From NCBI GenBank assembly GCA_963921275.4, contig OZ001293.3, forward strand, positions 6,048,001-6,112,000: a stretch of 64,000 bases of DNA. The letters are read 5' to 3'. Shown piece after piece: positions 7,161 through 47,572 of the stretch (its first letter is position 1; every line of letters begins with the position of its first letter). Below the pieces are notes generated by a model. The model searched no databases and had not been told where the DNA came from. It saw only the letters and a list, made by a program, of their open reading frames with translations. This DNA comes from an uncultured Hormoscilla sp. (GTDB lineage Bacteria; Cyanobacteriota; Cyanobacteriia; Cyanobacteriales; Desertifilaceae). The position numbers were made by a program, and so were the translations under genes.

Positions 7161-8608
7161 GATGGATATTTTTCCTTTATTCAAGCATATCACAATATGC
7201 CGAGCTTTAGGACAATCTTCACGAAAAAACTTTACCCATCTGTAAAACCGGTTACACCACTGCTGTTGTGTAGGTATTTTCTGTTCATCTAAATTGACAT
7301 GCTCTCTCAAAATTTCCCGATAAGGGGGAAGGATCAGAAGAATTCCCTCACTTTTGCGGGCCGTCTCCAAGAAGCTATTCCATTCATCAGGGTTATCGTA
7401 CTGCCAGGGCGGAACATTTCCCCCGGAGAATCTATCCAGTCTACAGGAATCTGGCTTTTACCAGTAGGTAGTTTTACTTGAACATTTAGGTGATTCTTTT
7501 CAATTTTCTCAGTTGGTTTAGCTGTACCATCTTTATTCAGGCAGAACTCCCTAAGATACTTGTAACTGTACTCGTAACTATTATTATTTAGCGAAACATT
7601 GACAAATTTGCCATTCGGGTTGGCCAACTCGACCACGAGGTGAGTTTTGCCAACAAAGCGATCGCCTATATAGGTCGGGGTCGAACTGGTACTCACGTAC
7701 CAACCCTCCAAGAGCGAAACCTGAAGAGCGACTGGAACCGCACACGGCTACTGGTTTGATAAGCCCTTGTCATGGGCAGGTAACTTTTGGATTACTCCCA
7801 TTGTCCCTTGTCCTATGAAATTTTGCCCCTTATGGTCAGTCGTGGAGCCGTTAGCTACCTAACTCCGGAAGGTTTGCGGGGGTGAACCAGTAAACCACTA
7901 AATCCGCTCTTTACTTACATGTCCCTTATATTTGGGGCTCTGAATTTTTACCCGGTTAGGATTTAATCCACCATTACTCCCTAGGATTGCTCCTGGTTTA
8001 GTACATTTAAGGGCTACTATCTCCCAGAACTTCTTACCATATCCGTCCTACGTCTGCATATCCTAGGCATTACCCCAGGCTTTGGCTTCTTAGGACATCC
8101 CTCCCACGTGGGCTTGCGCTTGACATCTAACTTGTCCGTCAGTAGGACAGCACCACGGGGGTTACTTCGTTCCCTGGTATCATTTCACGAGGCTTTTAGG
8201 TCTCACCTCTACACTGGCAGTCGTTTCGGGTACGATATCAGTGATTGATTAGCACTGATACGCGGACTACATGCACATTTTGTGCCAAGCGTGTCAGCCT
8301 CTTTTCGCTTGTTCGTGGTGACGATGCTTACAGGGATTTGCTTGTTCTAACCATGAACCTCTTTCCTATCGCGCAGCGTGGCGCAGCCATGCGGCGTCGG
8401 TCCCTGGGCTGAGACCTTATCCTTCATTTAAGTCCTTGCTCCACACCACGGCGATGTGGCTCCGCAGCACTAAGGACCGGTGTCACCCCCGCACCTGGGG
8501 AAGGGGAATTTAACCCCCATGATGACCAGAGTTATCTGGCTAATGGAACCAGACCCGACTTTCACCATTACTGGTTTACGCCGGAACGAATCGCACAACC
8601 ACTCCCAC
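7155..8608 (-). pseudogene. Small P-loop GTPase-like gene interrupted by a group II intron (exon1 8597-8608, exon2 from 7672); frameshifted near 7395 and truncated near 7165
   Basis: Spliced N-terminus MGVV|YIGDRFVGKTHLVVELAN (Walker A), then WIDSPGE (DxxG) and, in another frame, IVICLNK (NKxD-like). Confidence 0.7.
7673..8596 (-). ncRNA. ORF-less group II intron A (IIB/CL-like, 924 nt)
   Basis: 5' GTGCGATTCGTTC; DI closing GGGAACGAAG; degenerate DV starting AGCCG; DVI ending TCGACCCCGACC; EBS1 AATCA pairs with exon TGGTT; removal restores the host frame. Confidence 0.9.
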
Positions 8609-15526: not shown

Positions 15527-15541
15527 TCATCCCGCAGGGGG

Positions 15542-16062
15542 TTTAACTCGTTCCTATTTTTGAGGCTCTGCCTCCTGAGATTGCCTCATTTATCCTCTGG
15601 CAATCACATGCACCAACCATGTCAACGGACATAATATCATCGGGGGCAGTCCCCTCCCACCAAGGGTTCCGAGGCGGAGCCTCGGAACCAGGCCGAAGGA
15701 GTTCGGAGTTTAACTCGTTCCATGACTCCGGCATGGAACGTATTTTTGAGGCTCTGCCTCCTGAGATTGCCTTATTTATCCTCTGGCAATCACATGCACT
15801 AAACATGTCAACGGACATAATATCATCGGGGGCAGTCCCCTCCCACCAAGGGTTCCGAGGCGGAGCCTCGGAACCAGGCCGAAGGAGTTCGGAGTTTAAC
15901 TCGTTCCATGACTCCGGCATGGAACGTATTTTTGAGGCTCTGCCTCCTGAGATTGCCTTATTTATCCTCTGGCAATCACATGCACCAACCATGTCAACGG
16001 ACATAATATCATAAGAGGCAGTTCCCTCCCACCAAGGGTTCCAAGGCTCCGCCTTGGAACCA
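15542..16062. repeat. Three tandem copies (186-bp period) of a multi-hairpin REP/MITE element
   Basis: Unit has GTTCCATG..CATGGAAC, GAGGCTCTGCCTC and GGTTCCGAGGCGGAGCCTCGGAACC hairpins; copy 1 lacks the first hairpin. Confidence 0.9.
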
Positions 16063-16164: not shown

Positions 16165-16635
16165 AGCGCTATTGGAAAAACTGAATACCCTACCTATCTT
16201 TCGTAGACAAATACGCGCCTGGCTGAAGGCAGGTGTGATAGATGGGAAGAAAATGTTTGAGACAGAGGAAGGAACTCCCCAGGGTGGGGTTATATCGCCT
16301 TTGTTGGCAAATGTGGCCCTACATAGACTAGAGGAGGAAGTAAAATCCTTGGCAGGAAAAAACACAGTTAAACAGAAAGAAAGGAATGCGAACTAACGTT
16401 CAGAGAAGGAGATAGATGGGAAGTAGACCACATCGAACCGCTATCATTGGGTGGTAAAGACCGGTGGGATAACATCCAGCTATGACACAAACATTGTCAC
16501 CACAGAAAGATAACCAGAGATGGAAGTCGTCGTATTATTGACTTGGATGGCATTATCGAGGAGCTGGATGAGGTGAAAATCTCACGTCCGGTTTTGAATA
16601 CTCCTCGGTCCGGTAACTCCCTGGCTTAGTTTAAA
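16165..16635 (+). mobile_element. 5'-truncated, internally deleted group II intron remnant
   Basis: RT segment GTPQGGVISPLLANVAL fused to HNH segment WEVDHIEPLSLGGKD, followed by DV/DVI (GAGCTGGATGAGGTGAAAATCTCACGTCCGGTT...TTAGTTTAA). Confidence 0.88.
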
Positions 16636-17237
16636 GCTATGACGACTGGGATATGTCAAAACCAGAGAAGGTTATGTACAAACATGGCCATTTTTGGTTC
16701 ATAATTGACTAAAATAGGTATATACTTGGCCAAGCTAAGTATATACTAAACTATGTTAAATATATACTAAACTATGTATTAATAAAAATAAGCTAAATAT
16801 TAGCAAAATTAAAATAAATATTAGCAAAATTAAGGCAAATTTTGACAAAAATAAGCCAGGTTTAAGCAAAACTAAATTGAGTGAGTTATACAAATTAAAA
16901 AGGCTGATAGCCTTGCCAGCCTTAGCTTATAGAATCTGGCGAGCCTCGTAATATTCTTAATAAAAAGTTACAGTTGATAATCCCCATCTATTTTCTCAAT
17001 TTAATAACTACGAAGCACTCCCTGCACTGTTCCGGAAAAATCGGAGATCCCGGGTAGGGAGTCCGGAGTTGCCAGATCCGTCGTTAGACTCACTATACCA
17101 TAAACGAGGCGAGGTTATCGCCTTTATTCCTGTCCTCCTAGAACGACAATTAACTATCAACATTTTGTGAATAGCTAATTGTAAATGACTAATTGCCACT
17201 CTCAATTCTTAATTCTCTCCGAACCATTCTCAACTCT

Positions 17238-26433: not shown

Positions 26434-27304
26434 GTGCGATTCGTTCTAGCCTAACGTGGTCAAACACGGAACGCTAGCCCGGTTTCATTAGCCGGGAACT
26501 CTGACCGCATGGGGGTTAAATTCCCCTCCCCCCAGGTACGGGGGTGACACCGGTCCTCGGTGCTACGAAGCGACATCATCGTGGTGCTAAGCGAGGACTC
26601 AAATGTAGGATAACTGGCAGCCTAAGCCGGTGACGCCGCTAGGAAAGATATCCAAGGTTAGAGCAGGCAAACATGTGCAAGCCTCGTTATAAGGAACCAG
26701 CGAAATAAGGCTATATGCGCTGGCCTAAAAAGGAAATGGTAGCTAGTATTAGTTTTAGACTCTGGCTAATATAGTACTCAAATAGCTCCCGGGGTATAGT
26801 GTGGACCTAAAGGTATCGCGAAATGTTGTTAGGGAACGAAGTAACCTCTCGTGTGCTGTCCATCAGGACAAGTTAGATGTTAAGCGCAAGCCACGGGGGG
26901 AGGGATGGCCCAAGAAGCGAATGCCCGGGGTAATTCCTGGGATAACATCTACAGTAATGTAGATGATGCTGGGTAGCCAGCGCTGACGTGGGTCGGTGAT
27001 ACTAGGAAGCTGCTGGAATGAGTAATCCTAAAAAGCCACGGAACTAATCCGAAACGCAAGTGGAGGATAAGGTATGGATAACTGGTAAAACTGACTTGAA
27101 AATGGTGATACTAACGGTTATCAGAACAACCACTCGCTAAACCAGGAAAGGGAAGAAAAGACAGGCGGCAAGGGCTAACGGAAGTAATTCCTATTAAGTC
27201 TACCTATGAAAAGGGCCTAGTACCCAGTAGCCGGATGCGGTGAAAATCGCAAGTCCGGTTCCTCAAGGGAGGGTCGGGAAGCGATTCCCGGCTCGACCCC
27301 ATCC
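26434..27304 (+). ncRNA. ORF-less group II intron C (~870 nt; 3' end 27302-27304) inserted in a REP element
   Basis: 5' GTGCGATTCGTTC; intact DV AGCCGGATGCGGTGAAAATCGCAAGTCCGGTT; DVI ...CTCGACCCCATCC; EBS1 GACTCT pairs with exon AGGGTC. Confidence 0.92.
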
Positions 27305-41970: not shown

Positions 41971-43764
41971 TTATAACATCACGGGCATCCGTTGGAGAAC
42001 ACCCAGACCTAATTCTTGTTCCGATAGCGATCGCACCTCAAACAAAGCTAGCATATCTTTCAACTGAGGATTTCCCTTAGAAGCCCCCTTCATCCCCATG
42101 GCAATAATCAAACCGCAGCAACCCTTAGTTTTTTTACAGCGATCGTCCCATTTTTGTCTAGCTGCAGTATGAACCGAACTGAACTCAAACTCTTCAAACA
42201 AGTATAAATCCCCATCACCCGTTTGAAATATCCCCAAATCGAAGCTCTTGTCACTGTAGGGGTCTTCTCCTGGGTTAAAGCCAATTCCTTCCAGACCTTC
42301 AGCCGTTTGCAAATTCTGAATCAAAGCCTTTGCCTTCGGCTTAGAGGTTTGAACGATCACCACTGGCAGACCATCTCCAACTGTGGGAATCTGCTTTCGT
42401 GCCGCCTGATAGAAGTAAGCAGTTTTTCTTAATTGTTCTATACCCTCCCATGATACTACACATATACTACTTAGATAATTATCTGGGATCAGATCTTCCC
42501 GCAATAGGGGCATTTGCAGATCCCACTCATCGGAATCTTCATCGCAATCTTCATCGGAATCAGCTTCCATTACTGAAGAAACCATTTCAAACAGTTCCGC
42601 TGCTATATCCGGCAGAGTGGCAACCTTCACCTGAACTTTTTCTGCCGCCTCTTCGGCATCCGTTTGCGGTGTCTCTTCTTTTGTGCGCTTAGCGCTCCCA
42701 GGAGACACCGGAGGCAGGGTAATATTATATCGATTATTCAGGGCTGGAAACTGCTCGACCGTAATTTTTTTGCGCGAGGACTTAATAAAGCGACCTAGAG
42801 CTTCCAGCGCCACATACATGACCAGAGCCTCTTCTTCGTAGATAATTGACCGCAACCCCTCTAGTGGGTGTAAAGTCCCAAAATTCGGATCTATTTCTGA
42901 GAAGGGCAAGCTACCCAAATCCCAAGAAGACTCGTCGGAGTCAGCTAGTTCCGACTCATCGGAGAGTTCAAAAGTCAAGAACAGGCAATCTTGCTTGAGG
43001 AAGGCTTCTTCCAGCTTTTCGAGCGAGTCATGGGCCCATACCGCTGCCCGAAACTGCTTGAGAGAATCCAAGGACCGATATAGCAAAATGCCATATTCTT
43101 CACCCAGCATCCCCATCACTGAGACATAAAGGGTGCTCACATCCCAGCGGTTGAGTTCGATCGATAATACTTGGTACTCAGCCAAGATGTCCCAAGGACT
43201 CGCCTGCCAAATGTTACGTGCTTTGGAGAGCAACCCTTGAGCATACTGCGGCGGCAGTTGAGGAGGTCTGGTGATGAACTCCGATTGTAACTCTCGGAAC
43301 AGCCGATCGATCAGGGGCAGATTTGGCACATAGTCAATGGCAATGTCGAGGTCTTGGAGGACCCCTCGCAGGTAGAACTGGATTTCTCGATCGCGGACTA
43401 CTATTTTTTGGGGTAGGGCTGGTTTGGCCGGGCCCTGGGGATACTCGATCGCCCTGAGCAATGTCCGTACCACCACTTCTAGCCCTATCTCCGGTGCTAC
43501 CATATCCATTGACCGGACAATGCCTTCCGAGCCATCCACCCAAATAATGCATTCCCCTTGCGCCTCTGAGGGGACTTCTAGTTCATTGCCCTGTTCATCG
43601 ACAACCGGCAGACCAGCTGATATGGTGCGTCGATCGCCCTCCCAGACGCTGGTGATTTGTGGGAGTTTTTGCAGGCGACGGCATGTAGAGCGATTCAGAG
43701 TAGTCATAGACTCAGATTTATTGGGTACAAACGGGGGAGAAGCCAGCTGTGAGGTCAACCGCAT
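41971..43764 (-). CDS. Conserved cyanobacterial hypothetical protein (likely start MTTLNRST)
   Basis: 597-aa ORF; VWEGDRR, SVMGMLGEEYG motifs. Confidence 0.8.
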   Translation of the reverse strand: MRLTSQLASPPFVPNKSESMTTLNRSTCRRLQKLPQITSVWEGDRRTISAGLPVVDEQGNELEVPSEAQGECIIWVDGSEGIVRSMDMVAPEIGLEVVVRTLLRAIEYPQGPAKPALPQKIVVRDREIQFYLRGVLQDLDIAIDYVPNLPLIDRLFRELQSEFITRPPQLPPQYAQGLLSKARNIWQASPWDILAEYQVLSIELNRWDVSTLYVSVMGMLGEEYGILLYRSLDSLKQFRAAVWAHDSLEKLEEAFLKQDCLFLTFELSDESELADSDESSWDLGSLPFSEIDPNFGTLHPLEGLRSIIYEEEALVMYVALEALGRFIKSSRKKITVEQFPALNNRYNITLPPVSPGSAKRTKEETPQTDAEEAAEKVQVKVATLPDIAAELFEMVSSVMEADSDEDCDEDSDEWDLQMPLLREDLIPDNYLSSICVVSWEGIEQLRKTAYFYQAARKQIPTVGDGLPVVIVQTSKPKAKALIQNLQTAEGLEGIGFNPGEDPYSDKSFDLGIFQTGDGDLYLFEEFEFSSVHTAARQKWDDRCKKTKGCCGLIIAMGMKGASKGNPQLKDMLALFEVRSLSEQELGLGVLQRMPVML

Positions 43765-43780
43765 ATTTTAATCTTAATCT

Positions 43781-46183
43781 ATTAAACTAAGCAAGGATGT
43801 CACCATCCCTGCTCGTCTTCAGAACCGGACTTGACACTTTCACGTCATCCGGCTCCTCAGTAACGCCACCTTTATCATAGGTACGGCTTTGTTTACTACC
43901 ATCGCTGGCAGTCTTTATATCGTGGCAATGTCTGTGTAGTAACTGTAGGTTGTCGTACCGGTCCTTACCCCCTAATGAGAGAGGCTTGACGTGGTCAACT
44001 TCCCACTTGTCACAGTCCATAAACGTTAGTCCGCAGTGTTGGCATTTCCCTTTTTGTCTCTTGAGTAGTGTTGCTACCCTCTTACTCAGCTCGGGGCTTT
44101 TGCCTAACCTCGTACTCCAGTATGTAAGGTTCCCGTCGTATGGGCTTACTGTACCTTTCACTTTTATGTGTCTGATTATCTCAGTTTCGGAGTGTTTACA
44201 CAGCGTTATTTCATCCTCTCCTACCTTGCACCGGAATCGCCATTTACCATCCTTATTTAGAGACCAGTATTTGCGGGCAATCCAATGACTTGATTTTTTG
44301 GGATGTCTTCTTTTTGCCCACTGCCATAGGATGTTCCATAGGTAGTTATCCATGCTTGCGTAAGTCTCCGAACTCACCGCCGCCCTGTAGTAGTTTGACC
44401 ATCCCCGTATTATCTGGTTTAGTCTGCTTATCAAGGCTGCTTGAGATGCTGCTTTATGGCTGGCCACCATTTCTGATAGCCGTTCTTTATACTTCCCTAT
44501 GGATTTATTACTGGGTTTGATTAGGGTTTTGAATCCTAGGGGTATTCCGTGCGTTGATTTGCCGGTTCTGTATTTACTCACCTCATATTGCCTTATGTTG
44601 AATCCCAGGAAATCGAATCCCGGATTTTTTCCTTTTAGCGTATGAGTTATTTTTGTCTTTTCGGCTTTCAACTCTAGCCCCATTCCTTTTAGCCACTCCG
44701 CCACCGCTGTCTGCGCTCTGCCTATCATCTCCTTGTCTTCGTGCATTATCACAAAGTCATCGGCATACCTGACTACTGTCAGCGTCTGCTTTTCCTTTTG
44801 TGTCCTGGCGAGTTTCTTCACTGCCTCCTCTAACCGGTGTAGGGCTATGTTGGCCAGCAGTGGTGATATGACTCCCCCCTGGGGTGTCCCCGCCTCGGTT
44901 GCATGCCATTCCCCTTTGTCCATCACCCCGGCTTTTAACCATGCCCGTATTTGCTTACGGATTGGTGATGTTGTATTCAGTTTTTCCAGTAGCGCTCTGT
45001 GGTTTATCTTGTCAAAGCATTTTGCAATATCGGCATCCAAGACCCACTTGGGTTTGTACCTGATGCTTAGGAATATTGCTTCAATTGCATCGTGGCATCC
45101 CCTACCCGGTCTGAACCCATAAGAGTTCCCTTCCATATGCGCCTCCCATTCCGGTTCGAGCGCAATCTTGAGGAGCCCCTGTGTCGCACGGTCGTACATC
45201 GTTGGTATTCCTAAAGGACGCTTCTCCTCTCTCCCCGGCTTTGGTATCCATACACGACGTGTAGGTTTGGCCTTATTTGAGATTTCAATTTGTCTTACCA
45301 GTTCTGAGCGTTGCTTTGGGGTCAGTGCTTTTATACCGTCCACTCCCGCCGTCTTCTTTCCCTGGTTGTCTTGAGTTACCTGTCGTACCGCTAGACTTTT
45401 GGCAGCCCGGGATTTTACCAGTAACCTTTGGAGTCTGCGAACTGGTCGCTTATTACGCCTTCCATTGCCGCTCTGTAAATTCGCTTTTGCAACTTAAAGA
45501 CTACCCGCTCCAGCCGAGGCCAGGGGCTATCCTTCCATTCATTCATCGATTCGGAAACCCTGCTCATGACGTATGCATTGCTACTTACAACTTCACAATT
45601 GACGTTACCGTGAGGGCGTCAGCATATCCCATCCATTGCAGATAGGCGTTGGCTTCTCCTCGAAATCTTTCCCAGATACAACCTGCCAAATGAAAGCAGA
45701 TGTTGCGCCTGTGGTGGCTACTCAACCTATCGACCGGTAGTTGAGAGTATGTATCTGGTTTACTTCGTTCCTCTAGATGATTGGTCGTAGTTTTAGATGG
45801 ACTCTATATGCCGGGTTTGTTGTCAGTGCTTATTGGTCGGGGACAAAACCGCCAATGACCTATATCCTTTCCCTTTTGGGCCAGCGTATTAGCCTTATTC
45901 CGCTGGTTTGGGTTGACGACACTTATGAGCCTTCGCTTTCGTTCATCATGACTACTTGCTTGACGGTGACCGGTTTTGGCTACCAGTCAGGGCGCCTTTC
46001 TCTCCCGCTTTACGGATTGATGCCATCGCTACCGTCGGGTGAGTGCTGTCACTCCTGCACCTAGAGGGGTGGGCTTTCACCACCATCATCTAGAAGTTAT
46101 CAGGGCTAATGGAACCCTGCCAGTGGTCCCTCGCCGGTGTTCCTCTATTGGTTCACCGGTGATTTACACTGAACGAATCGCAC
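43781..46183 (-). mobile_element. Full-size group II intron (IIB/CL-like, 2403 nt), intergenic
   Basis: 5' GTGCGATTCGTTC at 46183; DV GAGCCGGATGACGTGAAAGTGTCAAGTCCGGTT; 3' end TTAGTTTAAT; EBS1 TTGTCC pairs with exon GGATAA. Confidence 0.95.
43787..45567 (-). pseudogene. ltrA: Group II intron RT/maturase/HNH protein with a frameshift in RT0 near 45455
   Basis: ATG 45567 MSRVSESMNEWKDSPWPRLERVVFKLQKRIYRA shifts into RRLQRLL...DNQGKKTAGVDG; PQGG, YADD and HNH motifs intact. Confidence 0.9.
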
Positions 46184-46316: not shown

Positions 46317-47572
46317 ATGACACAAGCAACTCAAGCTCAACAACGAGGCATCCTGATGACGGCAGCTGCCAAAGAGCATATGCTCGGACTACGGGAAAAA
46401 CAAGGGAAAGACCTCTGTCTGCGGGTTGGAGTCCGCCAGGGGGGTTGTTCGGGATTGTCCTATATGATGGATTTTGAAGACCCCAGCCAGATATCAGAGT
46501 CCGATAAGGTCTATGATTATGATGGCTTCGTGCGATTCGTTCCGGTATAAGCCAGTATGGTGAAAATCGGGTCTGGTTCCATTAGCCAGATAACTCTGGT
46601 AATCATGGGGGTTAAATTCCCCTCCCCCAGGTGCGGGGGTGACACCGGTCCTCGGTGCTGCGGAGCCACATCACCGTGGTGCTAAGCGAGGACTCAAATG
46701 AGGATAGCTGGCAGCCTAAGCTGGCAACTCCACTAGGAAAGAGGCTCATGGTCAGAACAAACAAATCTCCGTAAGTATCGTTACATAGAACCAGCGAAAA
46801 GGCTGATTGCGCTGGCCCAAAAGGGAAAGCAGTTCGCGTATCAATGCTGTGGCCTCATTGATATCGTACCCGCTCAGGACTGCCGGTATAGAGGAGAGAC
46901 CTAAAAGCCTCGCGAAATGATACCAGGGAACGAAGTAACCCCTCGTGTGCTGTCCAATAGGACCAGTCAGATGTGAAGCGCAAGCCACGAGCGGGAAAGA
47001 TGGCCCGAGAAGCTAATGCCTGGGCGGTGTCTTCCGCATGCTCTTGTCCTGAAGGACAAGAGCATGCGGAAGACGCCGGGTAATGCTCATGGATATGCTG
47101 ACGCGGGTCGGTGATATCAGGAAACTACTGGTATAAGTAACCTCAAAACGTCATAAACCCGTCCGCAACGTATAGCGCAAGCGAGTTGAGGATTGAGGGA
47201 TGTATAACTGGTAAAACGGACACGCAAATGGTGATCCTAAAGGTTTTTTAAAGCCACTCACCAACCAGGAAAGGGGCTAAATTGCAAGTAGTAAGGGCCA
47301 ACGGCGAGTAATCCCTAGTAAGCCTACCCATGTCAAGGGCCTGGTACCCAGTAGCCGGATGCGATGAAAGTCGCACGTCCGGTTCCGAACGGGAGGGTTG
47401 GGAAGCGATTCTCAGCTCGACCCCTAATCAGGTCGTCTGCGACCCCAAGAGCCTCCTCTATCTCTATGGCTTGCAGCTGGACTACAGCGATGCCCTCATT
47501 GGCGGTGGCTTCCAATTCACTAACCCCAATGCTACCCAGTCCTGCGGTTGCGGCAAGTCCTTTTCTGCCTAA
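46317..47572 (+). CDS. iscA: Fe-S cluster assembly A-type carrier, join(46317..46529,47429..47572), 118 aa after splicing
   Basis: Exon1 ...GGCSGLSY...YDYDGF + exon2 [14 protein letters not shown]...[16 protein letters not shown] join in frame and restore all three conserved Cys. Confidence 0.95.
46530..47428 (+). ncRNA. ORF-less group II intron B (899 nt) in iscA
   Basis: GTGCG...CCCCTAAT; intact DV AGCCGGATGCGATGAAAGTCGCACGTCCGGTT; J2/3 AGA matches the terminal U; EBS1 GTGGCC vs IBS1 GGCTTC. Confidence 0.95.

Follow-up and report, generated by a model that had tools for sequence, protein, structure and literature searches.

A conserved multi-helix domain IV in protein-less group II introns of an uncultured Hormoscilla sp.: a likely folding scaffold and docking site for intron proteins acting in trans

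Spliceosomal introns presumably descend from group II introns, and of interest in this respect is the step by which introns that lack a protein become dependent on a common machinery for splicing and mobility. In the intron Ll.LtrB the element DIVa of domain IV (DIV) is the high-affinity binding site of the protein LtrA, and it contains the ribosome-binding site and the start codon of the intron open reading frame (ORF). DIVa has been described as a critical binding region in introns of class IIA (available part of PMC2882425). According to the same source, the ORF-less TeI3 introns of the cyanobacterium Thermosynechococcus elongatus have kept DIVa1 and DIVa2 with covarying loops, and they are mobilised by TeI4 "driver" proteins (Mohr, Ghanem, Lambowitz 2010, PMC2882425). 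In Trichodesmium erythraeum, ORF-less introns are spliced with a maturase that is encoded in trans, and in bacteria ORF-less introns hardly ever occur without related ORF-bearing introns beside them, as stated in the available parts of two reports (PMC4649490 and PMC4424553 for the former, PMC4424553 for the latter). The present analysis concerns the DIV of an ORF-less group II intron, called intron B, in a window of 64,000 nucleotides (nt) from the genome of an uncultured Hormoscilla sp. (positions 6048001-6112000 of contig C1; the genome has 7.03 Mb in seven contigs). Coordinates are those of the window unless they are preceded by C1.

The DIV of intron B (47110-47349, plus strand) is a domain of several helices, and it is probably a folding scaffold and at the same time a docking site for the reverse transcriptase (RT)/maturase that ORF-bearing introns of the same genome would provide in trans. 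The original prediction, made from the letters of the window alone, had named three ORF-less introns, A (7673-8596, minus strand), B (46530-47428, plus strand, 899 nt, beginning with GTGCG) and C (26434-27304, plus strand). All three are present, together with all motifs that had been quoted for them, and the 5′ end GTGCGATTCG is common to them. A full-length alignment of A to B and C had a mean column identity of 80%. Domains V and VI (DV-DVI) of B (47350-47428, plus strand) and C (27226-27302, plus strand) scored 45.0 and 44.4 bits against the Rfam model RF00029, the gathering score of which is 40, as would be expected of bacterial group II introns, presumably of the IIB-type, chloroplast-like class. 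The DV-DVI region of intron A was below that score in the Rfam scan of the window. The predicted DIV length of 230-290 nt agreed with the measured values, i.e. 240 nt in B, 231 nt in C (26995-27225) and 292 nt in A (7753-8044). The DIV was found to have two architectures, type 1 with about 215-240 nt, which includes B and C (identical at 157 of 228 aligned positions), and type 2 with about 290-315 nt, which includes A.

The genome was searched with nhmmer using the ends of A, B and C. The search yielded 461 5′ ends and 414 3′ ends, from which 407 elements could be paired. They comprise 358,273 nt or 5.09% of the genome, and 388 of them start with GTGCGA. The elements of 600-1150 nt without an ORF were clustered at 94% identity, resulting in a collection of 359 ORF-less copies in 60 clusters. 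The largest clusters have 141 (that of C), 72, 17, 16, 14 and 8 copies, while those of A and B have three and two, respectively. In the available part of a survey of 1,790 representative bacterial genomes from 2022, the highest number of group II introns per genome was 101 (PMC8919778). In addition, a first look with RF00029 gave 867 candidates in the genome, and nearly all of the 150 that were scored matched; therefore, the genome holds more intron families. A literature search retrieved no paper treating both Hormoscilla and group II introns.

Of the 60 cluster representatives, 48 gave a DIV by a motif rule, and 12, including that of the 72-copy cluster, were skipped. Type 1 accounted for 16 of the extracted sequences (205-245 nt) and type 2 for 19 (at least 270 nt); a further 12 were shorter, and one had an odd form. 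Base pairs were counted in the 16 type 1 sequences (alignment A2) and in 18 type 2 sequences (alignment A3, one duplicate dropped), with one representative per 94% cluster and without the shorter and odd forms. For type 1, 42 pairs in eight helices were obtained, and 95.2% of the cells were paired versus 84.7% after shuffling; none of 500 shuffles reached 95.2%. Both sides had changed in 21 of the 42 pairs, compared to 2-5 in six slid controls. For type 2, there were 53 pairs in nine helices, 96.2% of the cells were paired versus 86.3% after shuffling, and 30 of the 53 pairs had changed on both sides versus 3-7 in the slid controls. The slid controls preserve the relatedness of the rows, which the shuffle control does not. 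As an alternative approach, three rows from other species (56-78% identity) were added to each set and the alignments were folded de novo with RNAalifold. The same helices were returned, with 40 pairs, 21 of them compensatory, for type 1 and 57 pairs, 37 of them compensatory, for type 2, and the rows from other species kept the helices in this fold. A search of the window with Rfam 15 gave no match to a DIV at gathering score, and in a permissive search with five DIVs the best match was RgsA (E 0.69, 14.7 bits versus a cut-off of 88.4), so that no Rfam family was found for the domain.

The individual parts of the DIV of intron B were assigned from alignment A2, the pair counts and the de novo fold, and the following values apply to type 1. 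The basal helix P1 is formed by 47110-47121 and 47340-47349, with ten pairs, 98% of the cells paired and four pairs changed on both sides; its strands are GATATCAGG/CCTGGTACC in B versus GATACTAGG/CCTAGTACC in C. Helix P2 pairs ACTACT (47124-47129) with AGTAGT (47287-47292), which are GCTGCT/GGCGGC in C. All six P2 pairs had changed on both sides, 100% of the cells were paired, and each position exhibited 4-5 pair types. The covariation of B and C helices that had been noticed before is thus borne out by P1 and P2. Helix P3 (47140-47144 with 47273-47277) has five pairs, 90.7% pairing and three pairs changed on both sides. It is followed by a hairpin arm (47148-47206, columns 40-98 of alignment A2), the length of which varies by cluster; it aligned unreliably and was kept outside the column-wise counts. 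Helix P4 (47208-47268) is closed by the invariant strands CTGGT (47208-47212) and ACCAG (47264-47268), so that covariation speaks neither for nor against it. It encloses a candidate pseudoknot proposed by RNAalifold, in which CGGA (47217-47220) would pair with 47247-47249, as a helix CGGA/UCCG, crossing a pairing of GGTGA (47230-47234) with TCACC (47258-47262). One pair covaries in either arm (GC7/AU5/GU2/UA1 and GC8/AU6). The two genomic copies of intron B differ solely at 47248-47249 (C1:1800956-1800957 in the other copy), i.e. in the 3′ strand of the candidate pseudoknot arm, where CC in place of TT makes G-C pairs of two G-U pairs; contigs of the run X1 also had CC. Hairpin H1 (47295-47325) has an outer stem (47295-47298/47322-47325) and a GUAA-capped inner hairpin (47303-47307/47312-47315), with 95% and 93% pairing and two pairs changed on both sides in each. 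Hairpin H2 (47327-47339, CCC-AUGUCAA-GGG) adjoins the 3′ strand of P1, and all three of its pairs had changed on both sides. Both hairpins had been predicted for B, C and the more distant intron A, and they are present in all three. The P4 region of type 1 and the CCGCGAACCUUCCGGAG core of type 2 are nearly invariant beyond what pairing needs.

The domain is conserved to almost the same extent as the ribozyme. The mean pairwise identity between clusters was 0.748 for the DIV and 0.779 for domains I to III (DI-DIII) in type 1, and 0.734 and 0.756, respectively, in type 2. Profile coverage of the 359 copies revealed a full type 1 DIV in 262, a full type 2 DIV in 73 and a partial DIV in 24. The 16 clusters with a partial DIV comprise 22 copies with a maximum of four each, while the 44 clusters with a full DIV comprise 337 copies with a maximum of 141 (Mann-Whitney p 0.034, Fisher p 0.048). 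Covariation, an identity near that of DI-DIII and the low copy number of truncated variants together uphold the view that the DIV is under selection as a structured RNA rather than being coding sequence in decay.

The distribution of the domain beyond this genome was analyzed with short sequences and with the whole DIV. A 19-mer of H1 had 95 matches in the own genome and none in 400 other sampled genomes of the phylum. When one genome per species was used, 26 loci were retrieved, only seven of which were intron-like by BLAST, and these belonged to three Hormoscilla sp. records. The other loci, one in a metagenome-assembled genome labelled "Cyanobacteria bacterium" and 18 in other phyla, were not intron-like by BLAST and were rejected. 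The three Hormoscilla sp. records had 1-6 H1 matches each with up to two mismatches and contained both DIV types in full length; therefore, both architectures are older than the expansion in the present genome. A DNA search with the DIV of B in 401 genomes of the phylum, in which two candidates per genome were scored, returned the two own copies and two marginal matches (E about 1e-3). For a 19-mer of the type 2 core, 120 of about 140 estimated loci in a metagenome collection were retrieved, and none had a match to a DIV profile or an intron protein. All of them were regarded as chance matches and rejected as relatives.

An ORF-bearing group II intron lies at 43781-46183 on the minus strand (RF00029 57.2 bits at 43781-43857, 5′ GTGCG at 46183). 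It encodes a protein of the RT-X-HNH type with RVT_1, GIIM and HNH domains, which is a candidate for the type of the helper. Among solved structures, chain C of 6me0, named "maturase reverse transcriptase", is nearest to it (E 8.7e-93); we take 6me0 to be the TeI4h particle of T. elongatus. A second ORF-bearing intron of this type is located at C1:5882626-5884999. A tblastn search of the genome with the intron protein gave 22 matches that span 585 or more of the 591 residues. Uninterrupted frames number at least three (591, 591 and 609 residues), and the subfamilies have 100, 77, 69 and 44% identity to F1. With so many genes for intron proteins, a helper is at hand, and the suggestion that the DIV might replace the maturase function is not supported.

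ORF-bearing and ORF-less introns resemble each other at both ends of the DIV. P1 is common to the ORF-bearing introns and has compensatory changes between their subfamilies. Their leader, AAGUAGC..ACGUCAUG or AAGUAGC..ACGUCAUGAGC, contains the start codon, and its counterpart in ORF-less introns is ACGUCAUAA or similar; in B the AAGUA motif and ACGUCAUAA lie at 47135-47156 (plus strand), where the ORF-bearing introns have ACGTCATGAGC. AGTA is found at nt 21-40 of the DIV in 45 of 48 ORF-less representatives, and AGTAG in the 5′ region of the DIV in seven of seven ORF-bearing introns. The homology of the leaders was judged by eye from position and short motifs, with nhmmer not being significant, and the start codon has been lost from the ORF-less leader (ATG to ATA in B). 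At the other end, the protein frame of the ORF-bearing introns continues through DV into DVI, and H2 lies within the last protein codons, where it covaries (CCC/GGG, TCC/GGA, CCT/AGG). The frame running into DV reads THVKG in B, TYEKG in C and AHDKG in A versus THDKG in the protein tail. The shared P1, leader, H2 and protein tail indicate that the ends of the DIV were inherited from an ORF-bearing ancestor.

The centre of the domain gave a different picture. A blastx search of 55 DIV regions against five intron proteins had a best E of 0.022, in a minus frame, and when four ORF-bearing introns were searched with nhmmer profiles of the two DIV types, the best E was 2.3. The longest sense frames from stop to stop within the DIV have 36 (B), 42 (C) and 49 (A) residues. 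Neither an N-terminal coding remnant nor a common deletion breakpoint was found in the ORF-less DIVs with blastx and nhmmer. The claim that the domain carries no RT-like coding trace is therefore valid apart from the remnant of the protein tail; likewise, a match to an eroded intron-encoded protein, which the original prediction had named as a counter-indication, exists at the ends of the domain, while blastx and nhmmer gave none in the centre. The ribozymes of ORF-less and ORF-bearing introns have only patchy similarity. The lack of a central counterpart and this patchy similarity indicate that the ORF-less lineage is old, or that it stems from a helper type absent from this genome.

The distribution of the DIV types on the ribozymes was analyzed with a DI-DIII tree of 47 representatives. 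The DIV type required 20 changes on this tree versus a mean of 22.1 after shuffling (46 of 200 shuffles were as low), and forcing the type 2 introns together cost 510 log-likelihood units (approximately unbiased test, p 3e-65), although for a group that was named after the tree had been seen. The DIV type is not in line with the ribozyme tree, since 5′ and 3′ halves appear to have recombined. For the clusters k6 (type 1) and k14 (type 2), the identity is 100% for about 400 nt within DI-DIII and then drops to 30-56%, while k6 and k25 have 74-80% identity in the 5′ part and 98-100% from the DIV onward. Similarly, B and k27 are 97.8% identical in DI-DIII, and k27 and k13 have identical DIV-DVI sequences. 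Under strict thresholds, five of 1081 pairs were stark mosaics. Judged from these sequences, the 5′ ribozyme half and the DIV-DVI half have apparently been exchanged, by recombination or template switching, and the DIV appears to be a swappable 3′ cassette and not a marker of lineage. The "distinct ribozyme lineage" of the original prediction was thus not recovered. A literature search on template switching or recombination of ORF-less introns found nothing relevant. It is tempting to speculate, at rather long odds, that DIV-DVI is an exchangeable adapter cassette and that each of the two modules decides which helper subfamily an ORF-less intron hijacks. If true, this would be a modular parasite of a parasite, and it would explain the presence of hundreds of helper-dependent introns in one genome.

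Intron B divides an IscA/HesB-type gene for Fe-S assembly, in sense orientation and in frame, at position 58/60 of the TIGR00049 profile. Exon 1 (46317-46529, plus strand) covers positions 2-58 of the 106 profile positions (E 1.4e-10), and exon 2 with the stop codon (47429-47572, plus strand) covers 60-105 of 106 (E 6.4e-18) and 67-110 of 110 in PF01521. The sole other genomic copy of this gene type is a distant paralogue. Contigs of two sequencing runs link 46529 directly to 47429 and lack precisely the 899 nt in between, which have GT..AT ends, and an intron-free site with identical flanks was found in contigs of a sponge metagenome run marked "DNA?". This joint fixes the boundaries of the intron and shows that the insertion is recent. 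The joint in an RNA contig was also considered as proof of splicing, which was rejected because the same joint is present in the "DNA?" run. The read depth of the RNA run (about 800 for introns versus about 5.6 for exons) was rejected as a signal of expression because it is near the copy number. The second copy of B is inserted at a different site, and TATGATGGC is common to the upstream sequences of both sites. Full-length BLAST matches to C with at least 98% identity number 140 in the genome.

The DIV most plausibly serves to recruit a protein in trans, and docking of a helper is suggested by the position of the domain, the shared motifs and the precedents. In the proposed scenario, loss of the ORF from the DIV would have given rise to the ORF-less lineage, in which the basal helix, the leader with the former start codon and the last codons, which also fold as hairpins, would have remained. 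The rest of the DIV would have been retained or newly elaborated, in the form of two compact alternatives. A helper protein would bind the DIV and thereby promote splicing and retrohoming, and DIV-DVI halves might pass between ribozyme backbones via recombination or template switching. A serious rival, though clearly the less likely reading, is that the central module is purely structural, i.e. that the DIV compactly closes the gap between DIII and DV and resists nucleases without a specific protein contact in its centre. The missing counterpart in ORF-bearing introns would agree with this, as would two unrelated-looking architectures that are swapped as cassettes on the same backbones, which fits a generic structural role. 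Yet a short hairpin would close the DIV equally well, and the 16 shortened clusters have four copies or fewer each; moreover, long stretches, such as those in the P4 region and the CCGCGAACCUUCCGGAG core, are nearly invariant beyond the needs of pairing, and 45 of 48 representatives have kept the leader motif shared with ORF-bearing introns. That the DIV itself stabilises the active ribozyme fold, so that splicing proceeds without any intron protein, is quite improbable. Intron B interrupts a probably needed gene of the single-copy type and must be spliced somehow, and the DIV is conserved as much as the core, but many helper genes are present, the recent spread to new sites requires a reverse transcriptase anyway, and either DIV type works on the same ribozyme backbone. 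To our knowledge, no contact between DIV and the catalytic core of group II introns has been described, which also counts against such a function.

The young age of most copies, with the 140 close BLAST matches and the 141-copy cluster, and a shuffle control that ignores relatedness might be taken to mean that the DIV is a neutral remnant of recently copied elements and that its covariation results from relatedness. This reading was already disfavoured and is very hard to credit, because the counts were made with one representative per 94% cluster, because the slid controls, which keep relatedness, gave 2-7 double changes versus 21 and 30, and because of the 4-5 pair types per position of P2 and the helices kept de novo by the rows of other species. 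A second job of the DIV after excision or in cis, be it as a small regulatory RNA, as a decoy for nucleases or defence proteins of the host, or as a specificity tag for helper subfamilies, is improbable. It could be read from the coexistence of two discrete conserved architectures with cassette exchange, from the invariant core sequences and from the several intron-protein subfamilies of the genome; against it stand the missing Rfam family and RNA data in which expression is inseparable from copy number.

Several points weigh against recruitment of a helper by a folded DIV. The tested structures, in the pair counts as well as for the pseudoknot, were drawn from the same alignments and are thus favoured over the slid controls, and the rows of the pair counts are paralogues of one genome. 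In the crude added alignment, the rows from other species keep just 25-31 of 42 and 37-48 of 53 pairs. The folding energy of single sequences was not better than that of shuffles (z -0.07 for B and -0.67 for C). For the central 130-220 nt of the DIV, no counterpart was detectable in the genome's ORF-bearing introns, and therefore a helper adapted to its own intron would not obviously need the central DIV. The association with copy number is weak (p 0.03-0.05), and clusters are not independent. The coexistence of two architectures with 16 truncated clusters indicates that no single central module is indispensable. Finally, a metatranscriptome contig with joined exons is indistinguishable from a transcribed intron-free allele, as the joint is also present in the "DNA?" run.

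Some further features of the introns were noted. In the ORF-bearing intron at 43781-46183 the N-terminal frame is disturbed; the tblastn match begins at residue 40, and the longest ORF has 518 residues and starts with GTG. The intron ends 17 nt ahead of the start of a DUF6930/DUF7309 gene (41971-43764). At 16200-16640 on the plus strand, a lone DV (RF04357, 61.9 bits; 16558-16598) follows coding fragments for RT and HNH and represents a decayed 3′ piece of an ORF-bearing intron; just upstream of it, at about 15540-16060 on the plus strand, three tandem units of about 180 nt contain ..tttttgaggctctgcctcctgagattgcc... Ten tblastn matches of the intron protein end at residue 464 (e.g. C1:1058434-1060631, 1148473-1150670 and 6408882-6411182), each within about 5 nt of the 3′ end of an oppositely oriented ORF-less intron of the C family. 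These junctions are either a repeated composite or a favoured target in the helper gene. The terminal loop of DV in intron A is UUCC versus the usual GAAA-type, and the loop words of the 359 ORF-less copies are UGAA (332), UUCC (17), CUCC (4) and UAAA (3), with three unmatched. The clusters k4 (14 copies), k11, k38, k42 and k46 are without the usual DIV end and DV 5′ strand (no CAGTAGCC), and the sequence ahead of the DV loop is ..CCTAAGGACAAGCCCCAGCGG in these. Outside the DIV, a palindromic repeat of the perfect type with 54 nt (47025-47078) is inserted at the tip of a DIII hairpin of intron B. In the genome it occurs in either orientation at 31 loci with a length of 30 nt or more, nine of them within paired introns; it resembles a small mobile or recombination-prone palindrome and lies near the DIII/DIV point at which the mosaics switch.

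The assumption of a short or decayed DIV as the normal state of ORF-less introns does not hold generally in cyanobacteria, since the introns of the T. erythraeum twintron have 215 and 317 nt in DIV besides the ORF according to the available part of the report (PMC4649490). The two filamentous cyanobacteria also have in common that ORF-less introns with large non-coding DIVs reside in protein genes and rely on the proteins of related introns, which for the present genome is a conjecture. T. erythraeum differs in having ten ORF-less introns versus hundreds here, and the available text on that system reports no analysis of covariation in DIV. The likeness to the DIVa of Ll.LtrB lies in the retained counterpart of the start-codon leader; the introns are IIA there and IIB-type here, and in the present case docking is putative and the start codon has been lost. 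Short-DIV ORF-less introns of bacteria and organelles share the absence of an intron protein, whereas their DIV is minimal or decayed and they are mostly immobile, in contrast to the conserved, paired and recently mobile introns with 215-315 nt described here.

The closest likeness is that to TeI3/TeI4. In both cases a cyanobacterial ORF-less family exists beside related introns with RT-X-endonuclease proteins, a structured covarying DIV and, apparently, remnants of the ORF ends have been kept, and spread to new sites as well as twintron-like nesting has occurred; the nearest solved structure to the window's intron protein points in the same direction. A match to an intron subclass already described, also named as a counter-indication in the original prediction, exists in part, as TeI3 is ORF-less with a retained covarying DIV (available part of PMC2882425). 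The differences are 359 copies in 60 clusters versus the 17 copies given in that part of the paper, the absence of a single shared breakpoint or N-terminal remnant among those found here, two DIV architectures plus truncated forms, recombined 5′ and 3′ halves, and ORF-less ribozymes that are only patchily similar to ORF-bearing ones. New in comparison are the scale, the two architectures, for which no common deletion is recognisable, the candidate pseudoknot and the cassette exchange, while the fold of the DIV is an extension of known biology and not a new kind of element. Taken together, the natural variants, with two architectures, 16 truncated forms and recombinant backbones, far exceed those of the Thermosynechococcus case, and the Hormoscilla genome is a ready-made mutational series for the question of which parts of its DIV an ORF-less intron has to retain if a helper enzyme is to serve it.

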